This document shows positions 2,634 to 49,757 of a stretch of DNA of 64,000 bases, piece by piece; position 1 is the first letter of the stretch, and the number at the start of each line of letters is the position of its first letter. The notes below the pieces were generated by a model, which saw nothing but the letters and a program-made list of their open reading frames with translations, had not been told where the DNA came from and searched no databases. A program made the translations under genes and the position numbers. This stretch comes from Oscillibacter sp. CAG:241 (lineage in GTDB: Bacteria > Bacillota > Clostridia > Oscillospirales > Oscillospiraceae), in contig FR884114.1 of the NCBI GenBank assembly GCA_000435975.1, positions 12,224 through 76,223 of the forward strand, in the 5' to 3' direction.

Positions 2634-3070
2634 TATCGAGTGGTCATAAGGGATTTCACTTATGGCCGCTCGATTTTTTCTGTTCTGTTATAATCTGATG
2701 CAGGGGAGCAGCATTTCTGTTACCTCCTTTTTGCGCAAAAAGCGGCTGCCGGTGCCTCCTGTGCATCGGCAGCCGCCCGCTGAATGGGGATATTTACTTG
2801 ATGAGTCCGCTTTCCTTCAGCAGGAGCTCAATATCGGTGCCCTTGACCTTTTTCAGGAGCACCTTGAGCATTTCCCTCTCCTTGAAGGACAGCGGCGCCT
2901 GGCTGATAGGCTTCTTGTCGATGGCGTAGTAGCAGGCACGCAGGATCTCACGCACATCGTACTTGCTGCCCCAGACCTCCGGCACGCCGCGGTCGATGTC
3001 AAGCAGCGTGTAGACCGACTCCATACCGGTACGCATGGAATACTCGGTGGTGAAGATGGTGTCACGGGGC

Positions 3071-3756
3071 GTCTCGGCGAACTGACCGATGAAGGCAAAG
3101 TTCACGGCGCCGTCGGGCACGACCTTGGGACGGTCAGATTCCTTGCGGGGTTGGAAGAAGGCGTTGATATAGGGCATAAAGCAGGTGGTGGTATTGCAGG
3201 CATCGTGGGCCAGCGCATGGATCTTTTCGGTGGGCACGCCGATGTGATACAGCCACTCACGGCAGACCTCCTCGCCGGTGCAGTCCCGCATGGCCTTTTT
3301 CACATAGTTGCCCTCTCTGTTGGTATTCAGAGAATACAGCCACACAAGCACCATGTTCTTATCCTGGGACTTGAATTGGGGCTGGCGGTTGATGGTCCAG
3401 GAAAGATACCAGTTGTCGGTGCTGTCCTTGACGGTGACAATACCGCCGGTGGTCACCTTGCCGGAGCGGGGATCACGCTTGCAGATGTTCCTAATATGCC
3501 GGATGATCTCCTCGTTGGAGGTGGCCACGGTAGCGCTCATCCAGTTGGTGGCGTCCACATCGGAGCAGAAGGCATCGGGGTTGCCGTACTCGCCGTGCTC
3601 CGCCTGCGCGGCAATGGCCTTCCACATATCCCAGGACTCACCTGCGCCGTTTTTCACGCCGGACAGGTCGGGGGCATGGGTCTGGTCGCCATAGCAGGAG
3701 GTATCGGTGCAGCAGCCGTTGGTGATGAACACCAGATCGTCCTCGATGAGGTCGAT
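3071..3756. repeat. 686-bp direct repeat, copy A (inside hydratase gene)
   Basis: Aligns without gaps to 4451-5136, roughly 90-93% identical, offset exactly 1380 bp (460 codons). Confidence 0.8.
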
Positions 3757-4450
3757 GGTCTGCTCCCTGCCGTCCTTGACATACACGATCTGCCGGGCAA
3801 CCTTCTTGTCGCCCTCAGTTTCGATGATGACATTCCTGACATCCATGCCATACTCGATATGCACACCGTGAGACTCCAGATATTTCACCAGCGGCAGGAT
3901 CATGCTTTCATACTGATTATACTTGGTGAAGCGCAGGGCGCTGAAATCGGGCAGGCCGTCGATGTGATGGACATAGCGGCACAGATATCGTTTCATCTCC
4001 AGAGCACTGGACCAACGCTGGAAAGCGAACATGGTCTGCCAATACAGCCAGAAGTTTGTATTCCAGAAGGAATCGGGCAGAACATCGGATATCTTCTTGT
4101 CCTCCAGATCCTTTTCCGGGGTCATAAACAGCTTGGACAGGGCCATGGCGGAGTCCTTGTCCAGCTTGAACTGCTTATCCGTGTGGGCATCCTCACCGCG
4201 GTTCACGCTGGCGCGGCACAGAGAATAGTTGGGATCGTGCTTGTTGAGCCAATAATACTCATCCAGAACAGAGATGCCCGGCGTCTCGATGGACGGAACA
4301 TCACGGAAGGTGTCCCACATGACCTCAAAATGGTTGTCCATCTCACGGCCGCCCCGCATAAAGAAGCCCTTGGTGATGTCCTTGCGGCCGTCGCAGCTGC
4401 CGCCTGCCAGGTCCAGCTTTTCTAATACATGGATGTGCTCGCCCTTCAGC

Positions 4451-5136
4451 GTCTCGGCAAATTGACCGATGAAGGCGAAGTTCACAGCGCCATCGGGCAC
4501 GACCTTCGGACGGTCAGACTCCTTACGAGGCTGGAAGAAGGAATTGATATACGGCATAAAGCAGGTGGTGGTGTTGCAGGCATCGTGTGCCAGCGCATCG
4601 ATCTTTTCGGTCGGCATGCCGATGTGGTACAGCCACTCACGGCAGACCTCCTCGCCAGTGCAGTCCCGCATGGCCTTCTTTACATAGTTGCCTTCCTTAT
4701 TGGTGTTCAGAGAATACAACCACACAAGCACCATGTTCTTATCTTGGGACTTGAACTGCGGCTGGCGGTTAATGGTCCAGGAGAGATACCAGTTGTCGGT
4801 GCTGTCCTTGACGGTGACAATGCCGCCGGTGGTTACCTTGCCGGAGCGCGGGTCACGCTTGCAAACATTCATAATGTGCTGAATGATCTCTTCATTGGAA
4901 GTGGCGACGGTAGCGCTCATCCAGTTGGTGGCATCCACATCGGAGCAGAATTTGTCCGGGTTGCCGTACTCGCCGTGCTCGGCCTGAGCAGCGATAGCTT
5001 TCCACATATCCCAGGAATCGCCCTTGCCGTTTTCAATGCCGGACAGATCGGGTGCATGAGTCTGGTCGCCATAGCAGGAGGTATCGGTGCAGCAGCCGTT
5101 GGTGATGAACACCAGATCGTCCTCGATGAGGTCGAT
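4451..5136. repeat. 686-bp direct repeat, copy B (5' part of hydratase ORF)
   Basis: Partner of copy A at 3071-3756. Confidence 0.8.
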
Positions 5137-5187
5137 AGAGATTTTTCCCTTTCCGTGTTTCATAGTACCATTATCGTATATTCAAAT

Positions 5188-5240
5188 TCTAAACTGAAAC
5201 GAAACTTTTGAAAATCCGGGCAGTTTCGTTTCAGTTTAGA
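5188..5240. promoter_or_regulatory. 18-bp perfect inverted repeat TCTAAACTGAAACGAAAC ... GTTTCGTTTCAGTTTAGA (17-nt spacer) in a divergent promoter region
   Basis: Lies between the hydratase start (5163, minus) and the flavodoxin-like start (5302, plus). The right arm recurs verbatim at 13939 and 23879. Confidence 0.6.
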
Positions 5241-5301
5241 ATTGCTTGCTACACTCTCCGCAGAAAATGTCGAAATAACGGTTTTTAAGGGAGTGACAGA
5301 C

Positions 5302-5814
5302 TTGAACTATGAAATAGCCTATTACAGTTTATCAGGCAATACAGAAAAGCTGGCATACGGCATTGCAAAGCGTCTTCCGGAAAATCAAGCTTTTTTGACG
5401 AACCTGCAAGAGGAAGAAGTTACCCTTGCGGCCGATGTGTATTTAGTAGGATTCGGCATAAACAACGGTACAGTCCCGCTAAAAGTCATGGACGCATTGG
5501 ACCGGCTGGCCGGAAAGAAGATATTCCTGTTTGTGACCTGCGGCATAGAGCCAAGTGAGGAATACAAGCGGCTTATCGAGCGCAAGATCGAACCTTTTCT
5601 GCCGGACGAATGCGACTATTGCGGCATTTTGCTGTGTCGAGGTCAGATAGCGGAGGAGGTGCTGAGCAAAATCCAAAGACAGTTCGCACAGCAACCGGAC
5701 GATCCTGCCATCAAAAAAATGATCTCCGAGGCAAAATTGTCCGAGGGGCATCCCGATGAAACGGATGCGGAAAACGCAGTGAGGTTTATCCGGGAAAAGC
5801 TTGATTCTTTCTAA
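5302..5814 (+). CDS. flavodoxin-like protein
   Basis: AYYSLSGNTEKLAYGIAKRL flavodoxin signature. TTG start 8 nt after AGGGAG; the in-frame ATG at 5309 is an alternative start. Confidence 0.65.
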   Translation: MNYEIAYYSLSGNTEKLAYGIAKRLPENQAFLTNLQEEEVTLAADVYLVGFGINNGTVPLKVMDALDRLAGKKIFLFVTCGIEPSEEYKRLIERKIEPFLPDECDYCGILLCRGQIAEEVLSKIQRQFAQQPDDPAIKKMISEAKLSEGHPDETDAENAVRFIREKLDSF

Positions 5815-5863
5815 CCGGCAAGCAGCATTTCAAAGATTCATTACATAAAAAGGAGTTTTTACC

Positions 5864-6118
5864 ATGAGAAAAGTTAAGATCATCACCGATTCCTGCGCAG
5901 ACCTGAGCGCAGAGCAACTCGAAAAATACGACATCGACTACGCCAGAATGTCCACGATCGAGGATGGCAAAGAGTCTCCGGCGCTTCTCACATGGACACC
6001 CGCAGAAGCACACAGACTTTACGAGACGATCCGTGGCGGAAAGCGTATCACGACAGCGCAGGTTTCCGTTGAAGAATTCAAAAGCTGTTTGAAAAATATC
6101 TGGGGCTTTATCAGTTAG
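5864..6118 (+). pseudogene. DegV/FakB-family fatty-acid-binding protein, N-terminal 84-aa fragment
   Basis: The KIITDSCADL DegV N-terminus ends at TAG 6116-6118 after about 80 residues, whereas full-length DegV is about 280 aa. Confidence 0.6.
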
Positions 6119-6474
6119 GGGCTGTCTATACAGGCCTTTTTGCTGTTCTTGGACATGCCTATCCGATCTGGTACGGCTTCAAAGGCGGCAAAGGATTTCT
6201 CGTCAGTCTTTCAACGATTTGGGTAACAGACTGGCGGGTCGGTCTGATCGTGACCGGAATGATGGTTGTACTGCTGCTTACCACAAAATATATGTCGCTT
6301 GCTACTGTTGCTGCGACGCTCTGCAGCCCATTGCTTCTGCTGCTGTTCAAAGCACCTGTATCCGTAATTTTGATAGACGCTGCAATCGTTATTTTTGTGG
6401 CGCTGCGGCATAAGGAAAACTTCAGGCGCTTGAAAGCCGGAACAGAATCAAAGTTTACATTAAGCACGCACTGA
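6073..6474 (+). pseudogene. PlsY (acyl-phosphate:glycerol-3-phosphate acyltransferase) C-terminal fragment without start codon
   Basis: Frame-1 translation AVYTGLFAVLGHAYPIWYGFKGGKGF...RHKENFRRLKAGTESK matches PlsY from about residue 85 to the end. It abuts the degV fragment in a different frame. Confidence 0.6.
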
Positions 6475-6519: not shown

Positions 6520-7437
6520 ATGTCTGAAAAATATATTCTTTATAATCCCTGTGCAGGCGGTCCGGAGACCGAGAAAGCCGTAAAAGCCTTGCAGGATGCC
6601 AATGAAGGGGCTGTGGCGATCAATATTTGCCGCATCATCAGTTATAAGACTTTTTTTAACGGATTAGACCCGAATGACACTGTGATCTTATGCGGCGGAG
6701 ACGGCACCCTGAATCGTTTTGTCAACGATGTTAACGGAATGAACATTCCCAATAAGCTCTACTACTACCCCACGGGAACCGGCAACGATTTTGCGAGGGA
6801 TGTCGGGCAAAAACCGTTTTCGGATCCAACGGTTTGCCTCAACCCATATTTTGAACGGCTACCTCGTGTAAGCGTTAAAGGAAAGTCTGAATTGTTCCTG
6901 AACAATGTCGGTTTCGGCATTGACGGTTATTGCTGTGAGGTTGGAGAAAAGCTCCGAGAGGAAAACAAGAAGAGGAAAAAGCCCAAGCCGGTAAATTATA
7001 CGAAGATCGCCATCACCGGGTTGCTGTTTCACTATAAGCCCAAGAATGTGACCGTCGTTGTTGACGGCAAACGCTATCAATATAAAAAAGTGTGGCTTGC
7101 CTCTGTCATGAACGGCAGGTTCTATGGCGGGGGTATGATGCCGACGCCGGAGCAGTACAGATTACGTGAAGACGGAAAGGTATCCATTCTGATATTCCAC
7201 GATGTCGGCAAACTGCGTGGACTAATGATCTTTCCGTCGATTTTCAGCGGCAAGCATCTGAAGTATACGAATCAGATGACGATTCTGGAAGGAAAGACCA
7301 TTCAAGTGAAATATAATGAGCCGGCACCGCTTCAGATCGACGGCGAAGTTGTACCGGAAGTCATGGAATATACGGTTCGGTCATGCGTTTCACCGGCAGA
7401 GAAAGCAAAACAGGACAGTGAAATGGCAGCTGTATAA
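6520..7437 (+). CDS. lipid kinase, diacylglycerol-kinase catalytic-domain family (YegS/BmrU-like)
   Basis: GGDGT motif and DAGK_cat architecture. GGAGG RBS 9 nt upstream. Confidence 0.8.
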   Translation: MSEKYILYNPCAGGPETEKAVKALQDANEGAVAINICRIISYKTFFNGLDPNDTVILCGGDGTLNRFVNDVNGMNIPNKLYYYPTGTGNDFARDVGQKPFSDPTVCLNPYFERLPRVSVKGKSELFLNNVGFGIDGYCCEVGEKLREENKKRKKPKPVNYTKIAITGLLFHYKPKNVTVVVDGKRYQYKKVWLASVMNGRFYGGGMMPTPEQYRLREDGKVSILIFHDVGKLRGLMIFPSIFSGKHLKYTNQMTILEGKTIQVKYNEPAPLQIDGEVVPEVMEYTVRSCVSPAEKAKQDSEMAAV

Positions 7438-7490: not shown

Positions 7491-8045
7491 ATGCATAGGA
7501 TATTCAGAAAAGATCAGGTATTGACGATACCGAATTTATTAAGTGTGATACGCTTGGCGCTGATTCCGCTGATCGTGTGGCTATATATAGGAAAGCAGGA
7601 ATATTCTGCTGCAGTGGCTGTGATTTTAATCTCCGGTGCAACGGATATTATTGACGGATTCATCGCCCGCAAATTCAATATGGTGTCAGACCTCGGAAAG
7701 ATTTTGGATCCCGTGGCAGACAAGCTGACGCAGGCTACGGTGATCCTCTGCTTGACGGTGAAATATCGCTGGATGCGCGGATTGATTGTTCTCTTTGTGG
7801 TCAAGGAGATCATTATGGCCGTGCTCGGGTATATGGCAATTCAAAAGAAAGATGTTGTTAACAGCGCAAAATGGTATGGCAAGCTCAACACCGTGGTTCT
7901 GTATCTGGTTATGACGTGCCTTATCTTGTTCCCGAGTATATCGGAAACGGTGGCAAATGTTCTGATCGGAATTTGCATTTGCGTTATGCTTATGTCCCTT
8001 ACGCTGTACATACGGTTTTACCTGAATCTGTTCCGCACGAACTGA
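7491..8045 (+). CDS. pgsA: CDP-alcohol phosphatidyltransferase (phosphatidylglycerophosphate synthase-like)
   Basis: DGFIAR-x8-G-x3-D-x3-D motif. Multi-TM protein with GGGAG RBS. Confidence 0.8.
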   Translation: MHRIFRKDQVLTIPNLLSVIRLALIPLIVWLYIGKQEYSAAVAVILISGATDIIDGFIARKFNMVSDLGKILDPVADKLTQATVILCLTVKYRWMRGLIVLFVVKEIIMAVLGYMAIQKKDVVNSAKWYGKLNTVVLYLVMTCLILFPSISETVANVLIGICICVMLMSLTLYIRFYLNLFRTN

Positions 8046-8077: not shown

Positions 8078-8799
8078 ATGGTTGTTGTTTACATACTGCT
8101 TGGCATTCTCGCCGTCCTGCTGCTCTATATTTGCTTCCTTGCAATTTGCAGCCTATGCGTCGATCCGAAAAAAGAATATGAGAAAAACAGCCGTTTTTAC
8201 CGCACACTGCTTACAGCGCTTCTGCCGCTGCTTTGAAGGTGCTGCGAATCAGAGTATATACAAGCGGACTGGAGAAGATACCTAAGAATCAAAAGCTGAT
8301 GTTTGTCGGAAACCATCGCTCCAATTTTGACCCGATCATTGAGTGGCTTGTGCTGAAACCGTGGGATATTGCGTTTATCTCAAAAGGCGAGAATTTTAAG
8401 ATTCCGTTTTTCGGACGAATTATTCGGAAATGCTGCTTTATGCCGATCGACCGGGAGAACCCGCGAAAGGCATTGAGGACGATCAATAAAGCTTCTGATC
8501 TGCTTCAGAGCGGCGAGGTCTCTATCGGTGTATATCCGGAGGGCACCCGAAGCAAAACCGGAGAATTGCTCCCGTTTCACGACGGTGTTTTCCACATTGC
8601 CAAAAAGGCCGGCACACCGATTGTCGTTATGTCCATCAGGGGAACGGAACAGATCCATAAGAATGTCCTACGCCGGCATTCCGATGTATATTTGGACATC
8701 GTGCAGGTGATTCCTGCAAGCGATGTGGAAAACGGAACCACACATACGATCGGCGCAGAAATACGGAATATGTTGCTCGATAGTATAAAAGATAAATAA
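8078..8799 (+). CDS. plsC: 1-acyl-sn-glycerol-3-phosphate acyltransferase (PlsC family); reading frame broken near 8200-8236
   Basis: AAGGAGGG RBS + ATG 8078 gives a TM N-terminus that stops at TGA 8234-8236. The catalytic domain (NHRSNFD, PEGTRS) continues in another frame from 8233 with no ATG/GTG and no RBS of its own. Confidence 0.7.
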
Positions 8800-8830: not shown

Positions 8831-9643
8831 ATACTCAAGCGAACGATAACCGGTGCGTTTATAACAGCCGCCGTTTACTTAATCCTATTCTATTCTTACA
8901 TACCGGCGGTCATTTTGGTGGCTACCGCCATCCTTTGCGCCTTTTCGGTGTATGAAATATACCGCGCAACCGGCACAATCGAAAATGAAGTGATGTTTAC
9001 TGTTTCTATGCTCATTGCCGTTTTGGCTGCTTTCGTACACATTCCCCGTTCCGAGATCGTACTGACGGTGGCATTTATTTTTGCAACTGTAGCATCCATT
9101 TGGCTGATGATACGGCAAAAACATTGCAGCTTGGACTCTCCCGTCAAGGCATTTTTCATTGTGCTCCTGATCATTGTGCTCTTTAAAGCCATTCCGGAGC
9201 TGAGAAGCCTGAATAGCGGACTGTATTATCTGATTTTTGCTGTCACATTGTGCTTTGTCACGGATGTCGCCGCCTATCTGATCGGGCGAGGTTTGGGACG
9301 GCATAAGCTAATGCCGAAGGTAAGCCCAAATAAGACCATAGAAGGCTCCCTTGGCGGCCTATTGTTCGGGGTGCTATTGGCACTGCTTGGCGGGATCGTT
9401 GTTGAGAAATTTGTAAAGATTGAAGTAAATTACGGAACGCTGGCACTTTGGGCGCTTATGACCTCCGTTGTCGGCCAGTTCGGTGATCTGTCTATGTCAG
9501 TGATCAAACGTATTTGCGGCATCAAAGACTATGGCAATCTGCTGCCGGGACACGGCGGTATACTGGACAGGTTTGACAGTCATTTATTTGCCGTTCCGTT
9601 TACTTATCTTTTCTGCACATACGCAGGCGGCTTCTTTTTATAA
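8831..9643 (+). CDS. cdsA: phosphatidate cytidylyltransferase
   Basis: CdsA signature KTIEGSLGG. The first canonical start is GTG 8915, but the in-frame upstream sequence encodes a CdsA-like TM1 back to about 8822 after a GAGGGG RBS, so the start is uncertain. Confidence 0.75.
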   Translation: MLKRTITGAFITAAVYLILFYSYIPAVILVATAILCAFSVYEIYRATGTIENEVMFTVSMLIAVLAAFVHIPRSEIVLTVAFIFATVASIWLMIRQKHCSLDSPVKAFFIVLLIIVLFKAIPELRSLNSGLYYLIFAVTLCFVTDVAAYLIGRGLGRHKLMPKVSPNKTIEGSLGGLLFGVLLALLGGIVVEKFVKIEVNYGTLALWALMTSVVGQFGDLSMSVIKRICGIKDYGNLLPGHGGILDRFDSHLFAVPFTYLFCTYAGGFFL

Positions 9644-13938: not shown

Positions 13939-13956
13939 GTTTCGTTTCAGTTTAGA
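13939..13956 (+). promoter_or_regulatory. GTTTCGTTTCAGTTTAGA motif copy upstream of ftsH
   Basis: Exact 18-mer, 48 nt before the ftsH ATG. Preceded by an imperfect hairpin+T6 at 13916-13938 that ends the upstream gene. Confidence 0.5.
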
Positions 13957-14003
13957 AATGGACAGTATACTCACCACAATGAACGAAAAGGAGTCGGGTA
14001 AGT

Positions 14004-16381: not shown

Positions 16382-16396
16382 TACAGGAGATGCAGT

Positions 16397-18868: not shown

Positions 18869-18883
18869 GGAGGTGCTCTGTAA

Positions 18884-36223: not shown

Positions 36224-36239
36224 TCGTTTCAGTCCTTTC

Positions 36240-36413: not shown

Positions 36414-36482
36414 AGCATTTCCTCCGATCCGACAAGGGCGGAGAAGAAAAACTTCCTCTCCGCCCGTCATTCTATTGATTAT

Positions 36483-38498: not shown

Positions 38499-38517
38499 TC
38501 TGTATCATCCTTTCTCG

Positions 38518-40530: not shown

Positions 40531-41282
40531 GCGCCCACCTCAAACAAATTCATCTGCGTGCTATCGTTCGGGAGTTCCTCTGCCGGCGGCTCCTTTTGGG
40601 GGACCGGCTTTTTCTTGTCGGCCTTCTTTTTGGATTTCGGAGCAGGCTTTCCGGGATAGGGCTTCGGAACGAATTTTTCCTCCTTTTCCTTGTCTTCCTC
40701 TGCGTCCATATCCATAAAGTATTCTTCGGCCCAGAGATAGCACATATCATCCGGCACATCACAGCCATAACTGCCTGCAATCGGCTGCTCATCGTTGTCC
40801 TTCATTTCCTGCTCGGCAAATTCCTTGGCCTTGCGGGTAATGTAACGGAAACAACGGATCATGTTCTTGCGGGGGTGCATGACCTGCCGGGCAAACTCCG
40901 GTTCGCTGAGGCACTTCGTCTGGATGTGCTCGGTCACGCATTGCTTCATATTGCGGCGGGTCAGACGCTCGGCATCATCCCCGACACGCTTCATTGAAGC
41001 CATCATGACCTCATCATCGCCCATAGCCACAGCGTTTTCCCAAGCAGCTTGTTCAGCTTCGGCTTTTTCACGCTGTTTTTGCTCCCATTCGGCTTTGCGC
41101 TTGGCTTCGGCCTCCTCGTGAGCACGGCGCGTTTCGTCCTCGGCCGCAGTATCCTGCATTCGCTGAAGCACTTCCTGTGCGGCCGCTGCCTCCGCCTGCT
41201 GTCGCTCATCATCTCGTTGTTCTGCAACAGCAGCCAGGTCGGCGCCTTTCTGCAGTTCCGTATTGTTGGTATCAACACTCAT
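40527..41282 (-). CDS. PcfK-like protein
   Basis: Acidic/Lys-rich 251-aa protein with a CFRYI...GSYGCDVPDD..CYLWAEEYF core. ATGA-coupled to pcfJ. Confidence 0.5.
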   Translation of the reverse strand: MSVDTNNTELQKGADLAAVAEQRDDERQQAEAAAAQEVLQRMQDTAAEDETRRAHEEAEAKRKAEWEQKQREKAEAEQAAWENAVAMGDDEVMMASMKRVGDDAERLTRRNMKQCVTEHIQTKCLSEPEFARQVMHPRKNMIRCFRYITRKAKEFAEQEMKDNDEQPIAGSYGCDVPDDMCYLWAEEYFMDMDAEEDKEKEEKFVPKPYPGKPAPKSKKKADKKKPVPQKEPPAEELPNDSTQMNLFEVGA

Positions 41283-41370
41283 AAAATGTTCCTCCTATAA
41301 AAATAGGGATACAGCGCAGTTTTACCCACGCTGTATCCCATTCTTGACCTATAGCCGTTTCCGGCTGTTC

Positions 41371-43053
41371 CTATTTCTTTGCGAGCATCGGAGAAAACTT
41401 CACCGGACAAAAACCGTCTGTGTCACGGTAGAAATAACGCCGTCCCGTGTCGTCATACAGTTCTATCACATCGGATGGGGCGACGCTCCTGCCTCGGTAA
41501 TCCTTTGGCAAAGCATCACCGAAAAGCTCGGCAATGCGTGTGAGCCGCCCTGTATCACTCGCCGTTTCCTCACAATGCAGCATACCGTCATGTATCAGCC
41601 TGTACTGCGCCGCCGGCGGGTATTCGTGACCTGCTTTTTGCAGTTCCTTTATTCCGACGAAGGCAAAGGGAATGACCTTGTAAAGACTAACATCCAACTG
41701 GTATATCCGAAACCGTTGCTCCTGCCTTTGCGACAGCAACCGATTTTCAAGCTCGTCGGAGCTTCTGACAAACAAAGAATACTCTTCCTCCGTCAGCCCG
41801 AGATATTCGTGCAGCTCACACGCACATTCAGTGCTTTCGTGCCACTGTGCAATATCATCGTCGATCACTTCAAAGTCACAAAGACCGTACATAAATCTTT
41901 GCCTGAAATTCTTCTTGCTATCCTCCTTTGCGTAGGCGTTTCGCTTTAAGGCAAGCTGCCAGTCGTCCACGCCCTTGTAATTCGGATTCCAGTTGAGTCC
42001 ACGGCACACCATGCCGTATTTCCTTGCCAATTCGTGCAGCTTCAAGGCGCCCTTGCAGGCAGCCTCATTCCGGTATTTGTCCATATCCTCCGATTCAATG
42101 ATCGTATGCGTGCCGTTCTCTGCCAGCTCTTTCAGTAGAAGCTCCAGCTGCGCCATATTGTTGACGCCGGCCGTAGCGGCAAAGGAACGGTTCATCAGAT
42201 AATGGGCAATGTCGGATTTCAAAAGCCCTTCCGTCACATAGACAACGCCTGCATTCGGATCACCGACAAAATGCGCCGGGCTTCCGGAGGAGGTGCCTTT
42301 CGGCTTACCGGCAGACGAAAACCAGATGTATTTGGCCCCGTCCTTTTCCGGCGGATCATCCTCATTCTTCAGCGGCACATCCAAACGGATCTGAAAGCCG
42401 CTGATAAGCCCTTGCCATGTCCGTGCAGGGATCATAATGCCGGCGGTAAAGCTGGAGCTGGCAATCGTCCACTGACCGTCCTTTTGATAAAATCCCGGCA
42501 CGCCATCCAGCTGATGCCCGTTTTGCAGAAGCCGGTTTGCCAGTGAACGACACATATAGAAGGGAGGCATAGTCTTGTAGCCCAACCTCTCGATCTGTTC
42601 ATCCGGCAAGCCTCTGACCGTTTGCAGATGCGCACGGTGCTCCTTGGATAGCGTCAGCATAGCAAGAAGTGCGGTATAGGTCTTATGGCGCACGGCAATG
42701 TCGGCAGCAGGCGCAGCTTCGACCGGCGTTTCCTTCGGCTTATCCGGGTACTTGACCGCATGATCCGAAAGGTTTACTCCGTTGAGCAGCGCATCGCTGA
42801 TCTCCCGATAGGCAGTGCTCGTGCTGATGCTATGCACCTTTGCATATAAAGCCAGCATACCGCCGCTTTCATCGCAGTAATTGCACCGCCAGGTATCGGT
42901 CTGCGTGTTGATGTGCATTTTCCCTCGCTTGTCATTACAGATGGGACAATCCACATAAAGCCCTTGCGGGCTCGGCCGCCGTATCCGTAAGTGAAGCAGT
43001 TCCGCCACATCCGTTATGTCGAACGAAAAATCATGCGGCTGGCTCATGAACAA
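41371..43053 (-). CDS. DNA primase (CHC2 zinc finger + Toprim domain)
   Basis: CPICNDKRGKMH...WRCNYCDESGG zinc finger and VVYVTEGLLKSD Toprim motif. Confidence 0.75.
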   Translation of the reverse strand: MFMSQPHDFSFDITDVAELLHLRIRRPSPQGLYVDCPICNDKRGKMHINTQTDTWRCNYCDESGGMLALYAKVHSISTSTAYREISDALLNGVNLSDHAVKYPDKPKETPVEAAPAADIAVRHKTYTALLAMLTLSKEHRAHLQTVRGLPDEQIERLGYKTMPPFYMCRSLANRLLQNGHQLDGVPGFYQKDGQWTIASSSFTAGIMIPARTWQGLISGFQIRLDVPLKNEDDPPEKDGAKYIWFSSAGKPKGTSSGSPAHFVGDPNAGVVYVTEGLLKSDIAHYLMNRSFAATAGVNNMAQLELLLKELAENGTHTIIESEDMDKYRNEAACKGALKLHELARKYGMVCRGLNWNPNYKGVDDWQLALKRNAYAKEDSKKNFRQRFMYGLCDFEVIDDDIAQWHESTECACELHEYLGLTEEEYSLFVRSSDELENRLLSQRQEQRFRIYQLDVSLYKVIPFAFVGIKELQKAGHEYPPAAQYRLIHDGMLHCEETASDTGRLTRIAELFGDALPKDYRGRSVAPSDVIELYDDTGRRYFYRDTDGFCPVKFSPMLAKK

Positions 43054-43083
43054 GCCTCCTTTCTAAAGAAATATCGGTGAATT

Positions 43084-43989
43084 TTAGCTTGCTCTTTGCA
43101 TTTCATCCAAAGACGCCTGCATGATCGTAGCTGCCGCACGAAGAATGTTATCATTGCCGGAATAGCCGTTGATGTACCATTTCAGGCTCGCAGGGCGGCG
43201 GTCAGCCACTTGCGACATCGCCCAGCCCTTGCAGGTGCCGAGAGGCACGATCACATTGCCGGCCTCTTCGTAGGTCATCATAGAGCAGATCTCATCGACC
43301 GGCATATCCGAGGAATAAGTCGGCGCTGCCGTATCGGTATCGGCGGTTTCTTCCTCAGTTTCTTCGCCCTCAGCATCTTCCATAGCAGGAGCAACAGATT
43401 CCATAACCTCTGCGGCAGGAGCTTCTGCAGCGGTTTCCTGAACAACAGGGGCTTCCTGCACAGGCTCGTTGATTACTTCTGTCGCCGCTTCGGCAACCGT
43501 AACCGGCACTTCTGTGGAAACTTGCTCCGCCGTGGCGGGTTCCACTACTGTCGGCTGCTCTTTGACGGTTTCGGCCGCTTTCTCTGCGTTCACTGCAGGT
43601 GCGGCAGCAGAAAACTGTACGCCAAAACCGGCGTCCGATAATGCCTGGTCGATGGCAGCGTGCTGCGCTGACTCGATATACAGACCGCCCGGAGTGGCTT
43701 TCGCCTCTCTCTGGGCAATGAAGCTGGATCTCGGCTGTGCGTCGTTCTTGTCGAAATACACACGCGCCTCGATGATCGCCAGCTGATCCGTAATCTTGAG
43801 GGAGGACAGCTTGATCCTGCCGTTCGGATATTTCAGGCGGAACCAGAGCTTTTTGTATTTGAGGTCAAGAACCTTTTCGCCCTTGGTCGTTCTGCGCAGA
43901 AATTTGAGCGGGTCAAAGCCCTGCACCTTGTTCAGCTCGGAAACCACAGGGACAGATTCATACATCGTTGCACTTTGATTTGTATTCAT
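43084..43989 (-). CDS. hypothetical protein; possible single-strand annealing protein with acidic low-complexity linker
   Basis: N-terminal about 130-aa conserved-looking domain (KLWFRLKYPNGRI...AIIEARVY), an A/E/P/T/V-rich acidic stretch, then a C-terminal domain. Sits between the primase and the helicase and exonuclease genes. Confidence 0.3.
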   Translation of the reverse strand: MNTNQSATMYESVPVVSELNKVQGFDPLKFLRRTTKGEKVLDLKYKKLWFRLKYPNGRIKLSSLKITDQLAIIEARVYFDKNDAQPRSSFIAQREAKATPGGLYIESAQHAAIDQALSDAGFGVQFSAAAPAVNAEKAAETVKEQPTVVEPATAEQVSTEVPVTVAEAATEVINEPVQEAPVVQETAAEAPAAEVMESVAPAMEDAEGEETEEETADTDTAAPTYSSDMPVDEICSMMTYEEAGNVIVPLGTCKGWAMSQVADRRPASLKWYINGYSGNDNILRAAATIMQASLDEMQRAS

Positions 43990-44054
43990 ACGGGAAATCT
44001 CCTTTCATAAATAAACACGAAGCACTCCTGCACTTTTCTGCAAGCCGCTTCGTA

Positions 44055-46301
44055 TCAACTGACCTTTTTCAATTCATTTTGGCGGGTAAAGGCTTTCAGA
44101 TATTTGCCGATACGCTCGCCAAGCTGCGTATTTCGTTTTCCGGTGGCCTTTTTGAGGATCGCCATGATCAGCGCTTTCTTCTGACCGACCGGGATGACTT
44201 GCTCCTTCGCACGGGTGATCGCCGTGTAGACGATGTTCCGATTCAGCATAATGTAATGGCTGCGAAGAATAGGCATGATCACAATATCAAATTCCGAGCC
44301 CATCGCCTTATGTACGGTAGTCGCATAAGCCAGTTCCATATAGCTCATTTCTTCCATACCGTATTCGGCAATACGGTCGCCGGAAAATTCGATCGTCACG
44401 ACCATTTCGTTCTTTGCATTGCGCCCCATTTTGCGAATGTAGCCGATGTCACCGTTGGATGCCTTCGCATTGTTTTTTGTCTGCATCACCTTGTCGCCCA
44501 CACGGAAGTAGTGGCTGCCGACCTTCAGATCGGCAAACTCGTCCCTCGCCGGATTGACAAGCTCTCGGATAGCGGCGTTAAGCTGCTCGACCGAGGCCGG
44601 CCCTTCCGAACGGAACGGAGAGAGTATCTGCACCTTTTCGATTCCGTGCAAAGCGACCTGTTCACAGAAGATCCTGCAGATCAGGTCAGCGGCATCTTCC
44701 TGTGTCTGGCACTTGACAAACTGAAAATCCTCGCCGTACTGAAGGTCGATGTTGGCCTCATTGATGCGCTTTGCATTGTAGGCAATGAGGCTGCCTTTTT
44801 TCTGACGGAAGATCTCATTGAGTACCGTAACGGGGATAAGTCCGCTGTCGATCAGCTCACGGAAGACATCGCCGGCGCCCACGCTTTGCAGCTGGTCCAC
44901 ATCACCGGTCAGGATAACTCTCGTACCCATACGGACACGGCTGAAGAATTGCCTTGCCAGCCACATATCGATCATGGAGCTTTCGTCCACGATGATGAGG
45001 TCGGCATCAAGCGGCTCTTTTTGTTTATCCCTTTGGATCGGCTCACTGTCGCCCAGCAGCCCTAAAAGGCTGTGCAGCGTTTTGGCGTCGTTTCTGCCCG
45101 TGCTTTCTGCCATTCTTCGGCTGGCTCGTCCGGTCGGAGCGGCAAGAAGGATCTTCCCCTTGGGGCAGAGCATCTGAAAGACCTCAATGATCGCCCGCAA
45201 GACTGTGGTTTTACCGGTACCGGGAGAGCCTGTGATGATAGACAGATTACTGCGAAAAGCCATATACACCGCCTCGCTTTGCCTTTGTGAAAGGGCAAGA
45301 CCGAGGTTTTTGCGGACATATTCGAGTGATTCGGATATATCCAGCGTGACCGGCGGTACAGCCAGCATTTCCGCAATTTTCCGGGCGGTTTCATCCTCCT
45401 GCACGAAAACATTGCTCTGATAGATGTTGCCGTTGCTTGAAACGATCTCACCCTTGAGGATCATATCCTGAACAACGGCGTCCACTTCCTCGGGCGTGAC
45501 CTTGACCTGTCCATCGGTAATATTCTCATTGAGCAGCTTCACACCCGTTTTCGCAAGCGCATCTTCTTCCAGAAAAAGATGGCCTTTTTCGTTGCGCCCC
45601 GTATCCAATGCCGCAAATACGGCGCCGTGGATCCGCATAGGAGAATTCAGCGGCAGATCGCCCTTGCGGACGATGGCATCGACTCTCTTAAATCCGAATC
45701 CGGATACCTGGCACAATTCATAGGGGTTCTTTTGCAGAATGTCTACGCTGCGGGAGCCGAAATGCTCATAAATCTTCATGGCCGTTACCGGCGTGACATT
45801 AAATGGGGTCAGCAGGATCATCAGATCCCGCACGCACCGGCTTTCCGCATAGGAGGCTTTGATGTCCTCCAGCTTATCCGGGGTGATTCCTCGAATCTCC
45901 AGCAGTCGCTCCGGCTCGTTTTCCAGCACACGCAATGCGTCGGCACCGAAGCGGTTTACGATCAATGCGGCAGTCTTTTCACCGACGCCTTTGATCAGCC
46001 GGGAGGAAAGATAACCGTATACGCCCTCTTTGGTCTGCGGCACGATCTCCTCGCACTTATCGACCTGCAGCTGAACACCGTGTTTTCCGTTCTCCCATTC
46101 GCCGTCCAGGATCATGCTCACCTTATCGGTTTGAGGCAATTCATACCCGACGGCGATAAACCGGATCATATTGTCCCGGTGACGGTAAGCACTCCGTGCC
46201 TGCTGCGGTACGCTTTGGTCGGAGGTTTTCACGCTGATAATGCAATACTTATTGCTCGGATTATAGAAGATCGTCCGGTCATAAGTCCCGACATACCCCA
46301 C
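44055..46301 (-). CDS. RecD-like SF1 DNA helicase
   Basis: HhH N-terminus, Walker A GSPGTGKTT, helicase motifs and C-terminal SH3-like region. GTG start with AAAGGAG RBS. Confidence 0.85.
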   Translation of the reverse strand: MGYVGTYDRTIFYNPSNKYCIISVKTSDQSVPQQARSAYRHRDNMIRFIAVGYELPQTDKVSMILDGEWENGKHGVQLQVDKCEEIVPQTKEGVYGYLSSRLIKGVGEKTAALIVNRFGADALRVLENEPERLLEIRGITPDKLEDIKASYAESRCVRDLMILLTPFNVTPVTAMKIYEHFGSRSVDILQKNPYELCQVSGFGFKRVDAIVRKGDLPLNSPMRIHGAVFAALDTGRNEKGHLFLEEDALAKTGVKLLNENITDGQVKVTPEEVDAVVQDMILKGEIVSSNGNIYQSNVFVQEDETARKIAEMLAVPPVTLDISESLEYVRKNLGLALSQRQSEAVYMAFRSNLSIITGSPGTGKTTVLRAIIEVFQMLCPKGKILLAAPTGRASRRMAESTGRNDAKTLHSLLGLLGDSEPIQRDKQKEPLDADLIIVDESSMIDMWLARQFFSRVRMGTRVILTGDVDQLQSVGAGDVFRELIDSGLIPVTVLNEIFRQKKGSLIAYNAKRINEANIDLQYGEDFQFVKCQTQEDAADLICRIFCEQVALHGIEKVQILSPFRSEGPASVEQLNAAIRELVNPARDEFADLKVGSHYFRVGDKVMQTKNNAKASNGDIGYIRKMGRNAKNEMVVTIEFSGDRIAEYGMEEMSYMELAYATTVHKAMGSEFDIVIMPILRSHYIMLNRNIVYTAITRAKEQVIPVGQKKALIMAILKKATGKRNTQLGERIGKYLKAFTRQNELKKVS

Positions 46302-46368
46302 GGTTCACCACTCCTTTCTCGTTTTCTTTCTGTGCATCGTTTTTCATCTGCACCATCCTTTCTTCCGT

Positions 46369-47424
46369 TTATGCCGCCTCGTCATATTTGCGCTTTACAT
46401 AGAAGCGGCGGCTTTCCGATACCGTCACATAATCCTCGTAAATATCGGGATGTTGTGCTTTCAGCCGTATCAGCCCTTCCTTGCCGATGTCGGGCTTTCT
46501 CGTAGGCTTGTAGCTGATGGAATAGAAAACGCCGCCGCTGTTTGCCGTAGCCGTGCAGCTTCGTCCCATTTCCGCTACAATGCGCCCTTGCAGCCGTTTC
46601 ATCTCGTTTTCGACCCGCTTGACCAAACGGTTCAATTCCGACTTTTCCGCCTGCAGCTCGGTATAGCGCACCAGACTGCTTGCCAGCGGCACGCTCAGCT
46701 CGATCTCAGGGGCGTTTTCGTCGGCAGGGCCGAAGTGACGCCGAACGCTTTCAAGCGTCAGCTCACCGTCCTCTGTGTACGGCGGCGGTGTCTGTGTCAG
46801 AACATGGTCGTTCCAGAAGTTGCCCTCCAGAGCGATCATTTCCGCCTCGTAATCCGGGTCACGCTCAATGTGCCGGATGATAACTTCATTTTCGTTGTTG
46901 CCGTAAAGGCAGCAGAAGTACACCTCATCCATATTCATCACGCACATATAATGGCGGCCCTGGATCTCGTAGTTGACGGGAACGATCTCCTGTCCGTCGC
47001 ACCACCAATGATCCTTTGCGTTGTAGTTTGTGGTCTTGATCTCAAGGATCGCCGTTTTGCCGTTTGGCAATCGGATGAAGTAATCAATGTCTGCCAGCAT
47101 ATAGGTGTAGACCGGGTGATAAAACATCTTCTTCACCTGATAGATCTCAAAACCTGTTTTCACATGGAAAATCTCAGCGACCAGATCCTCAAGCAAATGC
47201 CCAACCTTCTTTTGCACCCAGTTGCTTTCGCCGTCCTCATACGATACGACTTTGAGTTTGTCGTAGTAGAGGTCGCGGGCGGTCGCAAATGGGGACACAC
47301 CTAAAATGGCAGCGGCGTCACTTCCGCCGATCCCTCTGCGGCGATATTCCAGCCATTCCTCCTCCGGCAGATCTGCCGTGTCAACCAAAACCAGCGGTTC
47401 GTAGGTACTCGTTGTATTCGGCAT
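46369..47424 (-). CDS. YqaJ-like PD-(D/E)XK viral-type exonuclease
   Basis: RRRGIGGSDAAAILGVSPF YqaJ motif. ATG 47424 with GAGGTG RBS. Confidence 0.8.
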   Translation of the reverse strand: MPNTTSTYEPLVLVDTADLPEEEWLEYRRRGIGGSDAAAILGVSPFATARDLYYDKLKVVSYEDGESNWVQKKVGHLLEDLVAEIFHVKTGFEIYQVKKMFYHPVYTYMLADIDYFIRLPNGKTAILEIKTTNYNAKDHWWCDGQEIVPVNYEIQGRHYMCVMNMDEVYFCCLYGNNENEVIIRHIERDPDYEAEMIALEGNFWNDHVLTQTPPPYTEDGELTLESVRRHFGPADENAPEIELSVPLASSLVRYTELQAEKSELNRLVKRVENEMKRLQGRIVAEMGRSCTATANSGGVFYSISYKPTRKPDIGKEGLIRLKAQHPDIYEDYVTVSESRRFYVKRKYDEAA

Positions 47425-48345
47425 ATTATGCACCTCGATTCTGAGGCTGATAAAGCCTTGTGTGAGGGACATATACCGTTTTCAGCGGGTACTTTGCAAG
47501 CTTTCTTGCCTCCTTTCTTTTCACCTGCTGCTTGAACACAGCAGGTCTGGACACGCTTCTGTGCGAGTGCCGATGGGTTCGTCTTTTCATTCGGTTTCCG
47601 CCTTTCTAAAATGTATTCCAAAAGCACGAAGGCTTTTTGGGCATAAAAAAAGCGAGAACAACAGCCGATGCCTTTTCAGGCATTCATGTCCGTAATGAAT
47701 TACGAACAGGCGTCATTCTCGCAGAGGATATAAATATCCTTAAAAAATAAAAAATGCCAGTACATAACTGGCCTCACGGCACAGTTATACTACTGACATA
47801 CTGCAAACTTAACGATATGTGCAATGCAGAAACTTACTGCCGGTCCTTACGGACAACGCACAAAAATCAATTACAGAAAAAGTATAGCACAATATATCGT
47901 GTTTGTCAAGAATTTAGAAACTATATATAGTTGTGCGGACGGTAATACGGAAAAGGAGATTTTGCTTTTTTGAATCTTGATTGCAGAAAAGGCGGGTATG
48001 CCTCCGTGTTTATTAGTGAACGGATAGAGGAAGAAGCTCTATCCGCTTATGCACCTTGAAAACCGAATATCCTTCCGCTGGGAGTTATACAGGATCTGCG
48101 GACAGTATGCCACAATGATCGATTCGGAGCGTGCCCACAGAAGAATTGCCGCATAGCGGCAGCCTGCCAATACGCGGCTGAAATGGGCGCAGGAAATGGC
48201 CCGGCGGACAGGCGTTTTTAATTTGAACACAAACTAAATATAAATATATGCGGACAGCCCCACACGGGATCTTTTGCGAAAAGTAGTATAATGACAATAT
48301 CGCAAGGATACTCCATTGCTGCAGGCTGTCAGAAAGGAGGAAAAC
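47425..48345. other. 0.9-kb non-coding control region of the element (divergent promoters, hairpins; candidate ori/oriT)
   Basis: No ORF of 60 aa or more. Rightward TTGTCA-17-TATAGT promoter near 47900. Hairpins GCCAGT-acata-ACTGGC (47757-47773), GGATAGAG-gaagaag-CTCTATCC (48014-48036) and GCCGC-ata-GCGGC (48143-48155). A 54-codon Lys/Arg-rich ORF at 47590-47429 (minus) overlaps the exonuclease start. Confidence 0.4.
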
Positions 48346-48546
48346 ATGGCGGAATACAAACCGACAGCATTACAGACGAGCAAAAGATACTTGACAGCAA
48401 CGGATGTTGCCGAATTACTCGGTGTTTCCCGCAGTACGGCATACCGCATTATCAAGCGGCTTAACAGTGAACTGGAAAAAGCCGGAAAGCTGACTGTGGC
48501 GGGCAAGGTATCTGCCAAATATTTTTACGAGAATACCTACCTGTAA
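48346..48546 (+). CDS. xis: excisionase / Xis-type HTH DNA-binding protein
   Basis: YLTATDVAELLGVSRSTAYRII HTH motif, 66 aa, AGGAGG RBS, immediately upstream of the integrase. Confidence 0.7.
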   Translation: MAEYKPTALQTSKRYLTATDVAELLGVSRSTAYRIIKRLNSELEKAGKLTVAGKVSAKYFYENTYL

Positions 48547-48594
48547 GTGACGAGGGAAACCGTATCCGGGCGATGAAACTTTTACAGATCGGAG

Positions 48595-49662
48595 GTGAAA
48601 TCATTGCCGACCTACAAAGACGAAAAGACAGGGTTATGGTACTGTAAATTTGTTTACACAGATTGGACAGGCACCAAAAAGCAGAAAAAGAAGAAAGGTT
48701 TTCGCCTGCAAAAAGAGGCCAAGCAGTATGAACTGGATTTTCTGAGCAAGACATCAAATTCCTGCGATATGCTTTTTAGTGATATGGTAGAGATCTATAT
48801 GGATGACTGCAAAGCCAGAATCAGACCGACTACCTACAAAGGGAAAGAGGACATCATTGCGGTACATATTATGCCGTATTTCAAGAATTTGAAAGTCAAT
48901 GAGATCCAGCCGATGAATGTGCGTCGCTGGCAAACCGAGCTGATGAACAATCAGAAGAATTATAAGCCAACCTATCTGAGAACTCTGAACAGCCAGTTGT
49001 CTGCGATTTTCAATTTTGCAGTCAAGTATTACGGCCTCGGCAGCAATCCGGTACAAAAAAGCGGAACTATCGGTAAAAAGAATTCTGGCTTGGAACAGAT
49101 CTGGACAGCGGACGAATTCAAGATTTTTATTGATGCCGTCAGTGATAAGCTGCAGTCCAAGGTCATCTTTAATCTGCTTTACTGGACAGGAATGCGATCC
49201 GGAGAAATGCTGGCTTTAACCCTGAACGATTTCGACTTTGAGGAACGGACGGTTTCCATTACAAAAAACTATGCGCGTATAGACGGCGAGGACCTATTCC
49301 TTGACCCAAAGACGCCAAAAAGCAATCGCAAAATCACCTTGCCGCAATTCGTTTGCGATATGGTAAAGGATTATGCCGACAGATTGTACGGCTACGATCC
49401 GTCAGATAGACTGTTTGAAGTAACAAAGCATTATTTGAAGCACGAAATGGAAAGGGGCTGCAAGAAGACCGGACTCCGGGAGATACGGGTGCACGATCTT
49501 CGTCACAGCCACGCCAGCTTGCTGATTGAACTCGGTTTTGCACCGCTGCTGATCAGCGAACGCCTCGGGCATGAGAGCGTAACGACAACTTTGGAGATTT
49601 ATTCCCACCTGTACCCGACAAAACACGGGGAAGTTGCAGACCGCTTGGAGGCTTTCGCATAA
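48595..49662 (+). CDS. int: tyrosine-type site-specific integrase (N-terminal arm-binding domain)
   Basis: HDLRHSHASLL and LGHESVTTTLEIYSHL catalytic R..H..R..Y region. Likely start is TTG 48604 after GGAGGTG. Confidence 0.9.
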   Translation: MKSLPTYKDEKTGLWYCKFVYTDWTGTKKQKKKKGFRLQKEAKQYELDFLSKTSNSCDMLFSDMVEIYMDDCKARIRPTTYKGKEDIIAVHIMPYFKNLKVNEIQPMNVRRWQTELMNNQKNYKPTYLRTLNSQLSAIFNFAVKYYGLGSNPVQKSGTIGKKNSGLEQIWTADEFKIFIDAVSDKLQSKVIFNLLYWTGMRSGEMLALTLNDFDFEERTVSITKNYARIDGEDLFLDPKTPKSNRKITLPQFVCDMVKDYADRLYGYDPSDRLFEVTKHYLKHEMERGCKKTGLREIRVHDLRHSHASLLIELGFAPLLISERLGHESVTTTLEIYSHLYPTKHGEVADRLEAFA

Positions 49663-49668
49663 ATTTTT

Positions 49669-49701
49669 CGTGTACCCGCCGTGTACCTTTCATGTACCCG
49701 G
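49669..49701 (+). repeat. three direct repeats of (C)TGTACC at 11-bp spacing (candidate integrase arm-type sites)
   Basis: cgTGTACCCgc cgTGTACCttt caTGTACCCgg, immediately 3' of int and before the guaA terminator. Confidence 0.45.
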
Positions 49702-49703
49702 AG

Positions 49704-49748
49704 CAAAAAAGAAACCCGAAAACCCTTGAAAATAAAGGGTTTTCGGGT
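49704..49748 (-). terminator. rho-independent terminator of guaA
   Basis: AAACCCGAAAACCCTT-gaaaataa-AGGGTTTTCGGGT, followed on the minus strand by a T7 run. Confidence 0.7.
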
Positions 49749-49757
49749 AAGTGGCGA

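Follow-up and report, generated by a model that had tools for sequence, protein, structure and literature searches.

The window analysed here is a stretch of 64,000 nucleotides from Oscillibacter sp. CAG:241 (contig FR884114.1, positions 12,224 to 76,223), in which a block of lower GC content lies between a tRNA-Leu(CAA) gene and guaA. Our comparisons indicate that positions 4449-49755 of the window very likely derive from a large integrative and conjugative element (ICE) of human-gut Clostridia, as a copy that is truncated on the left, is probably immobilised and carries a predicted lipid regulon as cargo. An earlier note on this DNA, made from the sequence alone, had preferred a composite of two insertions, an older island at the tRNA-Leu gene and a later element, and had named one large element with a lipid cargo as the alternative. 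That alternative is the reading we favour, as cargo and mobile-element backbone were contiguous in every contig examined, and this constant linkage speaks against the composite.

The linkage was seen in three exact look-ups in a collection of public assemblies, made with the ParM-like protein, the cargo response regulator and a 1413-aa cargo protein, for which 30 contigs were listed. Gene order was constant in all 30: lipid genes, the response regulator, an XRE helix-turn-helix (HTH) gene, sigma region-4 and HTH_16 genes, the ParM-like gene, and then NAD-dependent ligase, PcfJ, PcfK and YodL. Index blocks listing the identical protein numbered 22,478 for the ParM-like protein, 24,372 for the response regulator and 3,882 for the 1413-aa (PlsA-like) protein, and the contigs shown came from human-gut metagenome assemblies of many cohorts. 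Given that none of the 30 loci separates cargo from backbone and that their tetranucleotide profiles correlate at 0.95, the two are read as one element and not as a tRNA island plus a second element.

Divergence was unevenly distributed along this element. The cargo was ~99.95% identical in most contigs (98-99.6% in one), and between 4.4 and 33.5 kb the window differed from the canonical contigs at ~10 positions in 19.4 kb. In contrast, the backbone (34-49.7 kb) showed a mosaic divergence among contigs of up to ~7%. Therefore, the cargo either spread far more recently than the backbones diverged or recombined into them repeatedly. One difference was specific to the window, a 1-nt deletion at 23746 that replaces the last four residues of the AI-2E-family transporter and lengthens the protein by five compared to all canonical copies. 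In some copies an IS200-type Y1 transposase gene (158 aa) is inserted at 33552/33553 (L026:9137-9885, L033:13666-14414), which is also where the near-invariant cargo side and the variable backbone meet.

Boundaries of the block and insertion at guaA

The compositional contrast described in the earlier note was borne out when windowed GC, GC at third codon positions (GC3) and tetranucleotide profiles were computed. In 1-kb windows GC was 0.43-0.55 across 4-50 kb, compared to 0.55-0.66 in the flanks. Mean GC3 was 0.557 for the 22 cargo genes and 0.595 for the 14 backbone genes, against 0.798 for 11 flank genes (Mann-Whitney p=1e-5). The left and right flanks correlated with each other at 0.91 in tetranucleotide profile, and the block correlated with the flanks at only 0.25-0.42. 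The cumulative GC skew has its maximum at ~31-32 kb, where the coding strand changes from plus (cargo genes) to minus (backbone genes); a replication terminus at the ~32 kb peak was considered and rejected in favour of an effect of gene orientation within the element.

The left boundary of the element lies at 4448|4449, and not at the tRNA gene (2640) where the earlier note had set the start of the block. Two conspecific contigs found via the identical short-chain dehydrogenase (SDR) of the left flank (L011 and L012) are 99.9% identical to window positions 1-4448; they are without the lipid block, and their oleate hydratase (MCRA) gene is intact, encodes 597 aa and is followed by a TetR gene. 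The segment 2641-4448 has an intermediate composition (GC 0.56, GC3 0.79), and despite this its 99.9% identity to contigs without the lipid block leads us to assign it to the resident locus. From 4449 onward the window is 99.95% identical to canonical copies of the element (L043 onwards). At the junction itself the resident MCRA is fused in frame, with no microhomology, to an internal point of MCRA', a fragment belonging to the element, which gives a chimeric open reading frame (ORF) of 789 aa. The two MCRA sequences are 90% identical. Homologous recombination between them was considered as the origin of the junction and rejected, because the register is shifted by 1,380 bp between the joined positions and no microhomology is found there. 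The three damaged genes that the earlier note had seen in this region (hydratase, degV and plsY) all exist, as the chimeric ORF and as fragments of 84 and 71 aa. Their interpretation as decay of a local island did not hold, as degV' and plsY' are called as the same fragments in other contigs of the element and are thus old scars conserved inside it.

On the right, homology to element-free contigs (found via the identical GuaA) ends at 49753-49756, the stop codon of guaA, and the integrase gene stands beside guaA as the earlier note had described. Since resident homology runs to 4448, element homology starts at 4449 and the right edge is the guaA stop, the foreign DNA extends from 4449 to ~49755. 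An empty guaA gene ends ...GAG TGG GAA TGA, whereas an occupied one ends ...GAG TGG GAG TAA. The element therefore supplies both the last codon and the stop. A tyrosine integrase and an excisionase, encoded at the end of the element next to this junction, are what is expected of the site-specific recombination module of an ICE.

The identical integrase, looked up by exact sequence, adjoins guaA in nine of ten places, in at least five other host contexts. In these contexts host GC ranged from 0.46 to 0.63 and the host flanks were 68-82% identical to those of the window, while the element DNA was 97-99% identical. The remaining copy is at a secondary, non-guaA site beside RNase III/PolA (L137). 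Among conspecific contigs the guaA site was empty in one (L010), where FtsW/FHA-PBP-dnaE comes next, occupied by the same element in two (L006 and L007), and occupied by at least four unrelated small elements elsewhere. Because the site is found empty, with this element or with unrelated ones, the guaA 3' end is a hot spot for insertion, and ICE tyrosine integrases that target it have been documented in streptococci (PMC4701971). Presence/absence polymorphism at the site, together with near-identical copies in unrelated hosts, is likewise the behaviour of an ICE. The earlier note was thus right that the block is foreign and its right part an integrative element at guaA; the empty site in L010 shows that the block is not conserved in all relatives.

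The unrelated insertions at this end (~11530 in L001-L010, equivalent to window 49755) are varied. Mob_Pre-type mobilisable elements with a different integrase occupy it in L001, L005, L008 and L009, one of them with a ~10-bp direct repeat of the guaA end, and other contigs carry a TIR-ThsB and HsdR island (L003), a resolvase island (L002) or an int-NikA-Mob_Pre element (L004). For the element itself, no second copy of the guaA 3' core, as expected for attL, was found across the window (up to three mismatches, or a degenerate pattern) or in any fetched locus. Flanking attL/attR direct repeats were thus lacking in the window and in the fetched left-arm loci. The 3' end of the tRNA-Leu gene, GAGTCCCACCACCGG (2609-2633), resembles the guaA attachment core TACTCCCACTCCACCG (49758-49775), and given the use of a non-guaA site in L137 it could be a secondary integration site.

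Canonical copies extend leftward past the breakpoint of the window by at least 24 kb, so that the element measures at least 69 kb (contig k141_161198 of ERZ27259432). In the full-length copies the left arm comprises, in order, the rest of the C-terminal 329-aa MCRA' fragment, an HTH_17 protein and a response regulator with a histidine kinase; then an SDR, a metallo-beta-lactamase-fold protein, a TetR-like protein, DUF5131, a methyltransferase, a DUF932 protein and SSB; and finally AbiEi/AbiEii, a sigma-like protein, a 1354-aa SpaA adhesin, an S1-domain protein and a 627-aa TraG/VirD4 coupling protein. In a variant copy a MobA/MobL relaxase fragment is joined to the TetR-like gene. Domain scans of the window found no conjugation module (coupling protein, type IV secretion system or relaxase). 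The full-length copies have TraG/VirD4, the SpaA adhesin, SSB and the MobA_MobL fragment, and the stretches read stop short of VirB4 and of an intact relaxase. We conclude that the full element is a large ICE of which the window holds only the right-hand 45.3 kb, and that the window copy is a decayed and not a functional ICE, which is probably immobile. One further contig (L059:4114-10986) has the ICE left arm, from the metallo-beta-lactamase-fold protein through SDR, histidine kinase and response regulator to HTH_17, joined to an intact MCRA-TetR pair. Beyond this pair lies a cluster of higher GC (0.55-0.69) with an alpha/beta hydrolase, a TetR gene and an ftsH gene 73% identical in nucleotides to the cargo ftsH, an arrangement that could represent either the state from which the MCRA' scar arose or a different membrane cargo.

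Two further contigs bear on the history of the window. An independent contig (L154) matches the window at 99.994% identity from guaA as far as the ParM-like gene (the right 17.9 kb), and its sample also holds the exact left flank. A contig of the same strain (L140) has two mismatches to the window in 16.4 kb and is 99.99% identical from 43305 rightwards. In it window position 43305 follows immediately on the SSB side of the ICE left arm, which is 99.5% identical to L058:1100-2498; the join lies at 4280-4286 of the contig. This join removes ~50 kb, including all the cargo, and creates a fusion ORF of 338 aa. L140 is thus a natural deletion variant without cargo. The window itself arose by one of three routes: deletion, recombination between two elements, or replacement of a resident ICE.

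Cargo genes and their predicted regulation

Cargo genes were annotated with Pfam and NCBIfam; most of the lipid enzymes match the right family but score below the equivalog cut-offs (Table 1). The proteins of the CDP-diacylglycerol pathway are thus, as judged from these matches, divergent family members whose exact substrates are read from homology. On paper the gene set would suffice to convert diacylglycerol or lysophosphatidate into phosphatidate, CDP-diacylglycerol, phosphatidylglycerol phosphate, phosphatidylglycerol and cardiolipin, with CMP recycling and conversion to plasmalogens. The cargo FtsH has the Pfam domains FtsH_ext, AAA, AAA_lid_3 and Peptidase_M41 and the GPPGTGKT and HEIGH motifs. 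It is 45% identical to a native FtsH (in an hpt-tilS context) in the flank of another host, a native cmk-plsC cluster stands in another host flank, and the host of the window has retained a DUF1538/P-II pair of its own (56% protein identity). For ftsH and plsC these findings agree with the earlier suggestion that ftsH, cdsA, plsC and pgsA of the block duplicate core functions.

The 1413-aa protein is a candidate plasmalogen synthase. Its gene is 4,242 bp long, it has the domain plan of PlsA (two activases and a reductase/dehydratase region), and its closest solved relatives are activators of 2-hydroxyacyl-CoA dehydratases. Such activators need a flavodoxin or ferredoxin as electron donor, which makes the adjacent flavodoxin gene meaningful; its product would be the low-potential donor for the PlsA-like activase domains. 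For comparison, single-gene plsA is 4,248 bp long and encodes Act1, Act2, Red1 and Red2 domains (PMC12838417).

Four exact copies of a 19-bp box, GTTTCGTTTCAGTTTAGAA, are present in the window, where none is expected. The first two are inverted with respect to each other in a divergent promoter region (5187-5241), the minus-strand copy being nearer to the start of the truncated MCRA'. The plus-strand copies lie ~46-60 nt upstream of the first genes of co-oriented runs, namely flavodoxin, ftsH (46) and the PLD-like gene (46). Every copy is 8 nt upstream of a TAnAnT hexamer, the presumed -10 (4/4), and outside the cargo no copy was found in any fetched locus. The box consists of direct half-sites, GTTTC and GTTTA, 11 bp apart, and would span ~-39 to -21. 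Similarly, a pho box has direct half-sites with 11-bp periodicity at ~-39 to -21, replaces a good -35 element and lies at a fixed short distance from the -10. The geometry is the same as in PhoB-type promoters at 4/4 promoters, and the presumed regulon likewise includes a gene for an OmpR/PhoB-family regulator, but the sequence of the box is unrelated to that of the Escherichia coli pho box and the receiver of the regulator lacks several conserved residues. This receiver is degenerate when aligned to PhoB (D10 to R, T83 to G, K105 to R), and the regulator may not be phosphorylated. From the distribution of the boxes, the ~26-kb cargo would appear to form one regulon controlled by the OmpR-type regulator that it encodes. 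Autoregulation is proposed because the regulator gene is the last gene of the fourth box-headed run.

Taken together, the comparisons show that the ICE enters the guaA 3' end by means of a site-specific integrase, accompanied by an excisionase, and rebuilds the last codon and stop. In the genome of the window the left arm and attL are lacking, and the remainder is joined non-homologously, in frame, to the resident MCRA beside tRNA-Leu. For the cargo the following mechanism is proposed. The cargo regulator would bind the predicted box, activate the four promoters and regulate its own gene. The cargo enzymes would then turn diacylglycerol or lysophosphatidate into the anionic phospholipids listed above, and the flavodoxin-fed PlsA-type enzyme would convert diacyl lipids to plasmalogens, accompanied by the second FtsH, two MsbA-like exporters and other membrane proteins. 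The likely benefit would be membrane remodelling under bile, antimicrobial peptides, unsaturated fatty acids or oxygen.

Table 1. Features of the window (scores are given with the cut-off of the model).
Feature	Position	Strand	Remarks
tRNA-Leu(CAA)	2548-2633		sole tRNA of the window
Resident (native-type) oleate hydratase/MCRA gene, codons ~47-597	2794-4448	-	Pfam MCRA; GC3 0.79; left flank, truncated at junction
Internal piece of the element's N-truncated MCRA' fragment	4449-5163	-	left end of element DNA in window
19-bp box	5187-5205	-	
19-bp box	5223-5241	+	
Flavodoxin	5302-5814	+	Pfam Flavodoxin_3, 4.7e-30
degV' fragment	5864-6118	+	84 aa
plsY' fragment	6259-6474	+	G3P_acyltransf; 71 aa
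YegS/DgkB-type lipid kinase	6520-7437	+	Pfam, NCBIfam; below equivalog cut-off
PgsA/ClsA-like CDP-alcohol phosphatidyltransferase	7491-8045	+	pgsA 96.1, cut-off 109.1
PlsC acyltransferase	8233-8799	+	AGP_acyltrn 97.1, cut-off 102.95
CdsA	8918-9643	+	110.6, cut-off 385
1413-aa protein, candidate PlsA-type plasmalogen synthase	9662-13903	+	two BcrAD/BadFG activase domains and DUF2229
19-bp box	13939-13957	+	
FtsH membrane protease, second copy	14004-15833	+	TIGR01241 754.8 bits, cut-off 600
Genes following ftsH	15830-23776	+	DUF308 membrane protein, 223-aa unknown, two MsbA-like ABC exporter half-transporters (17108-18868, 18884-20689), cytidylate-kinase-like protein, CrtO-type membrane acyltransferase, PAP2 phosphatase, AI-2E-family transporter
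19-bp box	23879-23897	+	
Fourth box-headed run	23944-30596	+	PLD-type cardiolipin-synthase-like enzyme (93.5, cut-off 290), membrane alpha/beta hydrolase, DUF308, DUF1538 membrane protein and P-II-like partner, Zn metallopeptidase, terminal OmpR/PhoB-family regulator
Atypical OmpR/PhoB-family response regulator	29889-30596	+	Trans_reg_C domain; receiver 29.3 bits, Pfam cut-off 30.2
XRE HTH	30750-31079	-	
Sigma-70 region-4 protein	31532-31924	+	
HTH_16	31921-32103	+	
125-aa protein	32144-32521	-	
ParM/Alp-like actin	32527-33438	-	
Backbone run	33608-47424	-	77-aa protein, peptidase-like (334 aa), 447-aa protein, DpnD/PcfM, NAD-dependent DNA ligase, PcfJ, PcfK, primase-like/YodL protein, 301-aa protein, RecD2-type helicase, YqaJ/RecE-like exonuclease
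Excisionase-like HTH	48346-48546	+	HTH_17-type Xis
Tyrosine integrase	48604-49662	+	TTG start, 352 aa; Arm-DNA-bind_4, SAM_3 and Phage_integrase domains
attR junction	49753-49778		guaA 3' end; conserved core TCCCACTC
guaA	49758-51287		integrase gene adjoins

Alternative readings

Several observations weigh against the reading of the block as a truncated ICE with a lipid regulon. At the left junction, the fused 789-aa MCRA had no record elsewhere in an exact look-up, and the junction was seen only in this window. Contigs of the same strain stop at 2757-2963, in a stretch with 90% identity between the resident MCRA and MCRA', which raises the possibility of a misjoin. In addition, the two flanks of the window are not neighbours in relatives, where the adjacency of tRNA-Leu and guaA that the earlier note had proposed for an empty state was looked for and not seen, and this implies an unexplained rearrangement. 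As to mobility, the window copy has neither attL nor conjugation genes. Among representative genomes no carrier of the cargo was found, a search of their contigs with the flavodoxin returning only relatives of 28-36% identity in unrelated metagenome-assembled genomes. With regard to function, the kinase-paired regulator of the full-length copies is missing from the window and is an equally plausible regulator of the box; CdsA, PgsA, PlsC and Cls score below their equivalog cut-offs, with clear Pfam domains; and the PlsA assignment draws on domain plan and length.

The observations at the left junction are also what would be seen if the block were real but its adjacency to the tRNA-Leu/MCRA locus an assembly artefact, with a full-length or differently truncated ICE at guaA in the true genome; the different structure of the same-strain contig L140 left of 43305 points the same way. 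This reading has to contend with a junction that joins non-homologous positions without a shared k-mer, unlike the De Bruijn or overlap misjoins that occur at repeats, and so is not what repeat-driven misassembly produces. It must also accommodate an MCRA fusion that happens to be in frame, and the reproduction of the right 17.9 kb in an independent contig whose sample holds the exact left flank. We consider such an artefact unlikely, but a rival to be taken seriously.

The composite of an older tRNA-Leu island with a lipid toolkit and a later, separate element at guaA would account for the switch in gene orientation and GC skew at ~31-32 kb, for the intermediate composition of 2641-4448, and for the far greater conservation of cargo than of backbone, which suggests partly different histories. 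In conspecific contigs the region after tRNA-Leu is, moreover, rich in mobile-element genes (ArdA, DUF4314). However, all contigs examined have the identical cargo-backbone join, also in other hosts and where no tRNA-Leu is near, and the cargo leads leftward into more ICE genes and not into a tRNA. The conspecific tRNA-Leu locus has an intact MCRA-TetR pair and then ICE-like genes, without lipid genes, and the last 16-25 nt of the tRNA-Leu gene are not repeated (up to two mismatches) in the window or in L011 and L012, as they would be at the far end of a tRNA island. Two separate insertions are thus very improbable.

A prophage or phage-plasmid could be suspected from the YqaJ/RecE-like exonuclease, RecD2 helicase, primase-like protein, DNA ligase, ParM-like protein, integrase and Xis. 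Pfam and PHROGs scans found no capsid, portal, terminase or tail protein, there were zero matches among 50,697 phage records, and the TraG/VirD4, SpaA adhesin, relaxase fragment, PcfJ/PcfK and YodL of the full-length copies are typical of Gram-positive conjugative elements; we therefore give a phage origin scarcely any credence. In other collections, the plasmid search gave one partial match of 73% to a Subdoligranulum variabile replicon, and IMG/VR, searched with the metallo-beta-lactamase-fold protein of the left arm, gave only relatives of 71-74% identity; the element does not correspond to a known plasmid or phage. Lastly, the genes look like housekeeping lipid genes and might be taken for an ancient, conserved but compositionally odd native locus. 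This idea is refuted by presence/absence polymorphism, the site being empty in L010, and DNA of ~99.9% identity occurs in hosts in which the guaA region shares no more than 68-82% identity with that of the window. Its probability is practically nil.

Known systems, implications and neighbouring features

The truncated guaA ICE proposed for 4449-49755 has counterparts in the site-specific ICEs of Bacillota described at this site, such as ICE_SmiB6_guaA (Ambroset et al. 2016, PMC4701971). These elements are alike in having a tyrosine integrase and Xis at one end, exact insertion at the guaA 3' end that restores the reading frame, a modular mosaic structure, and several unrelated elements sharing the hot spot; the likeness is one of arrangement. 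The hosts differ, being streptococci there and gut Clostridia here. So does the backbone, which here has PcfJ/PcfK, YodL, RecD2, YqaJ, NAD ligase and a ParM-like protein, and the window copy is without attL and conjugation module. The mobility machinery is thus of a known kind, a site-specific guaA ICE with a mosaic Gram-positive backbone, and it is the cargo that stands out.

Islands with an additional ftsH gene offer a parallel for part of this cargo. The TLPQC/LHR (tLST) loci of Enterobacteriaceae, which are related to the Pseudomonas aeruginosa island PACGI-1, characteristically carry chaperone and disaggregase genes; Pfam scans found no small heat-shock protein (HSP20) and no Clp domain (ClpG/ClpK) in any cargo ORF. 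PACGI-1 itself, from P. aeruginosa clone C, is alike in being a horizontally spread island with an extra, diverged FtsH xenolog and genes for envelope and proteostasis functions, and such islands are thought to raise environmental stress tolerance (PMC6629908). They differ from the present cargo, the core of which is a phospholipid/plasmalogen pathway with its own regulator, in Gram-positive anaerobes.

The candidate plasmalogen synthase resembles the anaerobic synthase PlsA/PlsR of Clostridium perfringens (CPE1194-1195) and the single-gene form of Enterococcus faecalis (EF1327) in its plan of two activases and a reductase/dehydratase-like part (PMC9702350, PMC12838417). Its gene is within 6 bp of the length of single-gene plsA and sits among phospholipid genes. 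The likeness is one of architecture, and paralogous proteins of ~1,400 aa with other functions exist. Moreover, the described genes are chromosomal and beside a TetR regulator, whereas that of the window is ICE cargo with another box and regulator.

The synthesis of core membrane lipids is usually regarded as vertically inherited housekeeping. Here a conjugative element carries along ~26 kb of membrane-lipid genes, with listings in tens of thousands of index blocks of public assemblies, and the cargo copies inspected are almost identical in sequence across hosts of 46-63% GC. It is possible, although we hold the view only tentatively and with more doubt than confidence, that conjugation is spreading a complete, self-regulated phospholipid/plasmalogen biosynthesis module, with an FtsH and lipid exporters of its own, through human-gut Clostridia that are only distantly related. 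If so, the difference of ~0.05% in the cargo, against up to ~7% in the backbone, would imply that the cargo swept through very recently, possibly worldwide, or was captured repeatedly by recombination, and recipients could alter their membrane composition on demand. This would be a class of adaptive ICE cargo that we did not find in the literature: no description of this element, or of a conjugative element with a phospholipid/plasmalogen regulon, was found, including in a paper on the Faecalibacterium mobilome.

If the cargo is functional, plasmalogens and anionic lipids of gut bacteria would be a partly mobile trait, and strains could differ in membrane chemistry through carriage of one element. 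Plasmalogens and anionic lipids bear on tolerance of bile, antimicrobial peptides and oxygen and to host lipid signalling. The hypothesis is directly testable, as both operator and regulator are defined and deletion variants without the cargo, of the L140 type, occur naturally. The window also shows decay of an element in place, in which attL and the transfer genes are lost and mobile cargo becomes fixed chromosome.

A few features lie outside these subjects. Between the YqaJ exonuclease and excisionase genes are 870 nt (47473-48345) of ~45% GC with no convincing ORF and no Rfam match, a candidate regulatory or oriT region; the Rfam scan gave no match anywhere inside the block. In the right host flank the scan identified a THF riboswitch (69 bits, 53074-53172) upstream of genes for an ECF-type S component and a FolC-like Mur ligase (53257-55127), and an ssnA RNA motif (68.7 bits, 55282-55329) upstream of an amidohydrolase gene (55427-56770). 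In the left flank (390-2364), an AONS/KBL-family aminotransferase (396 aa) and an SDR (263 aa) are encoded by genes that overlap by 8 nt. This pair resembles serine palmitoyltransferase and its ketoreductase, and may represent a sphingoid-base pathway in this Clostridia host.

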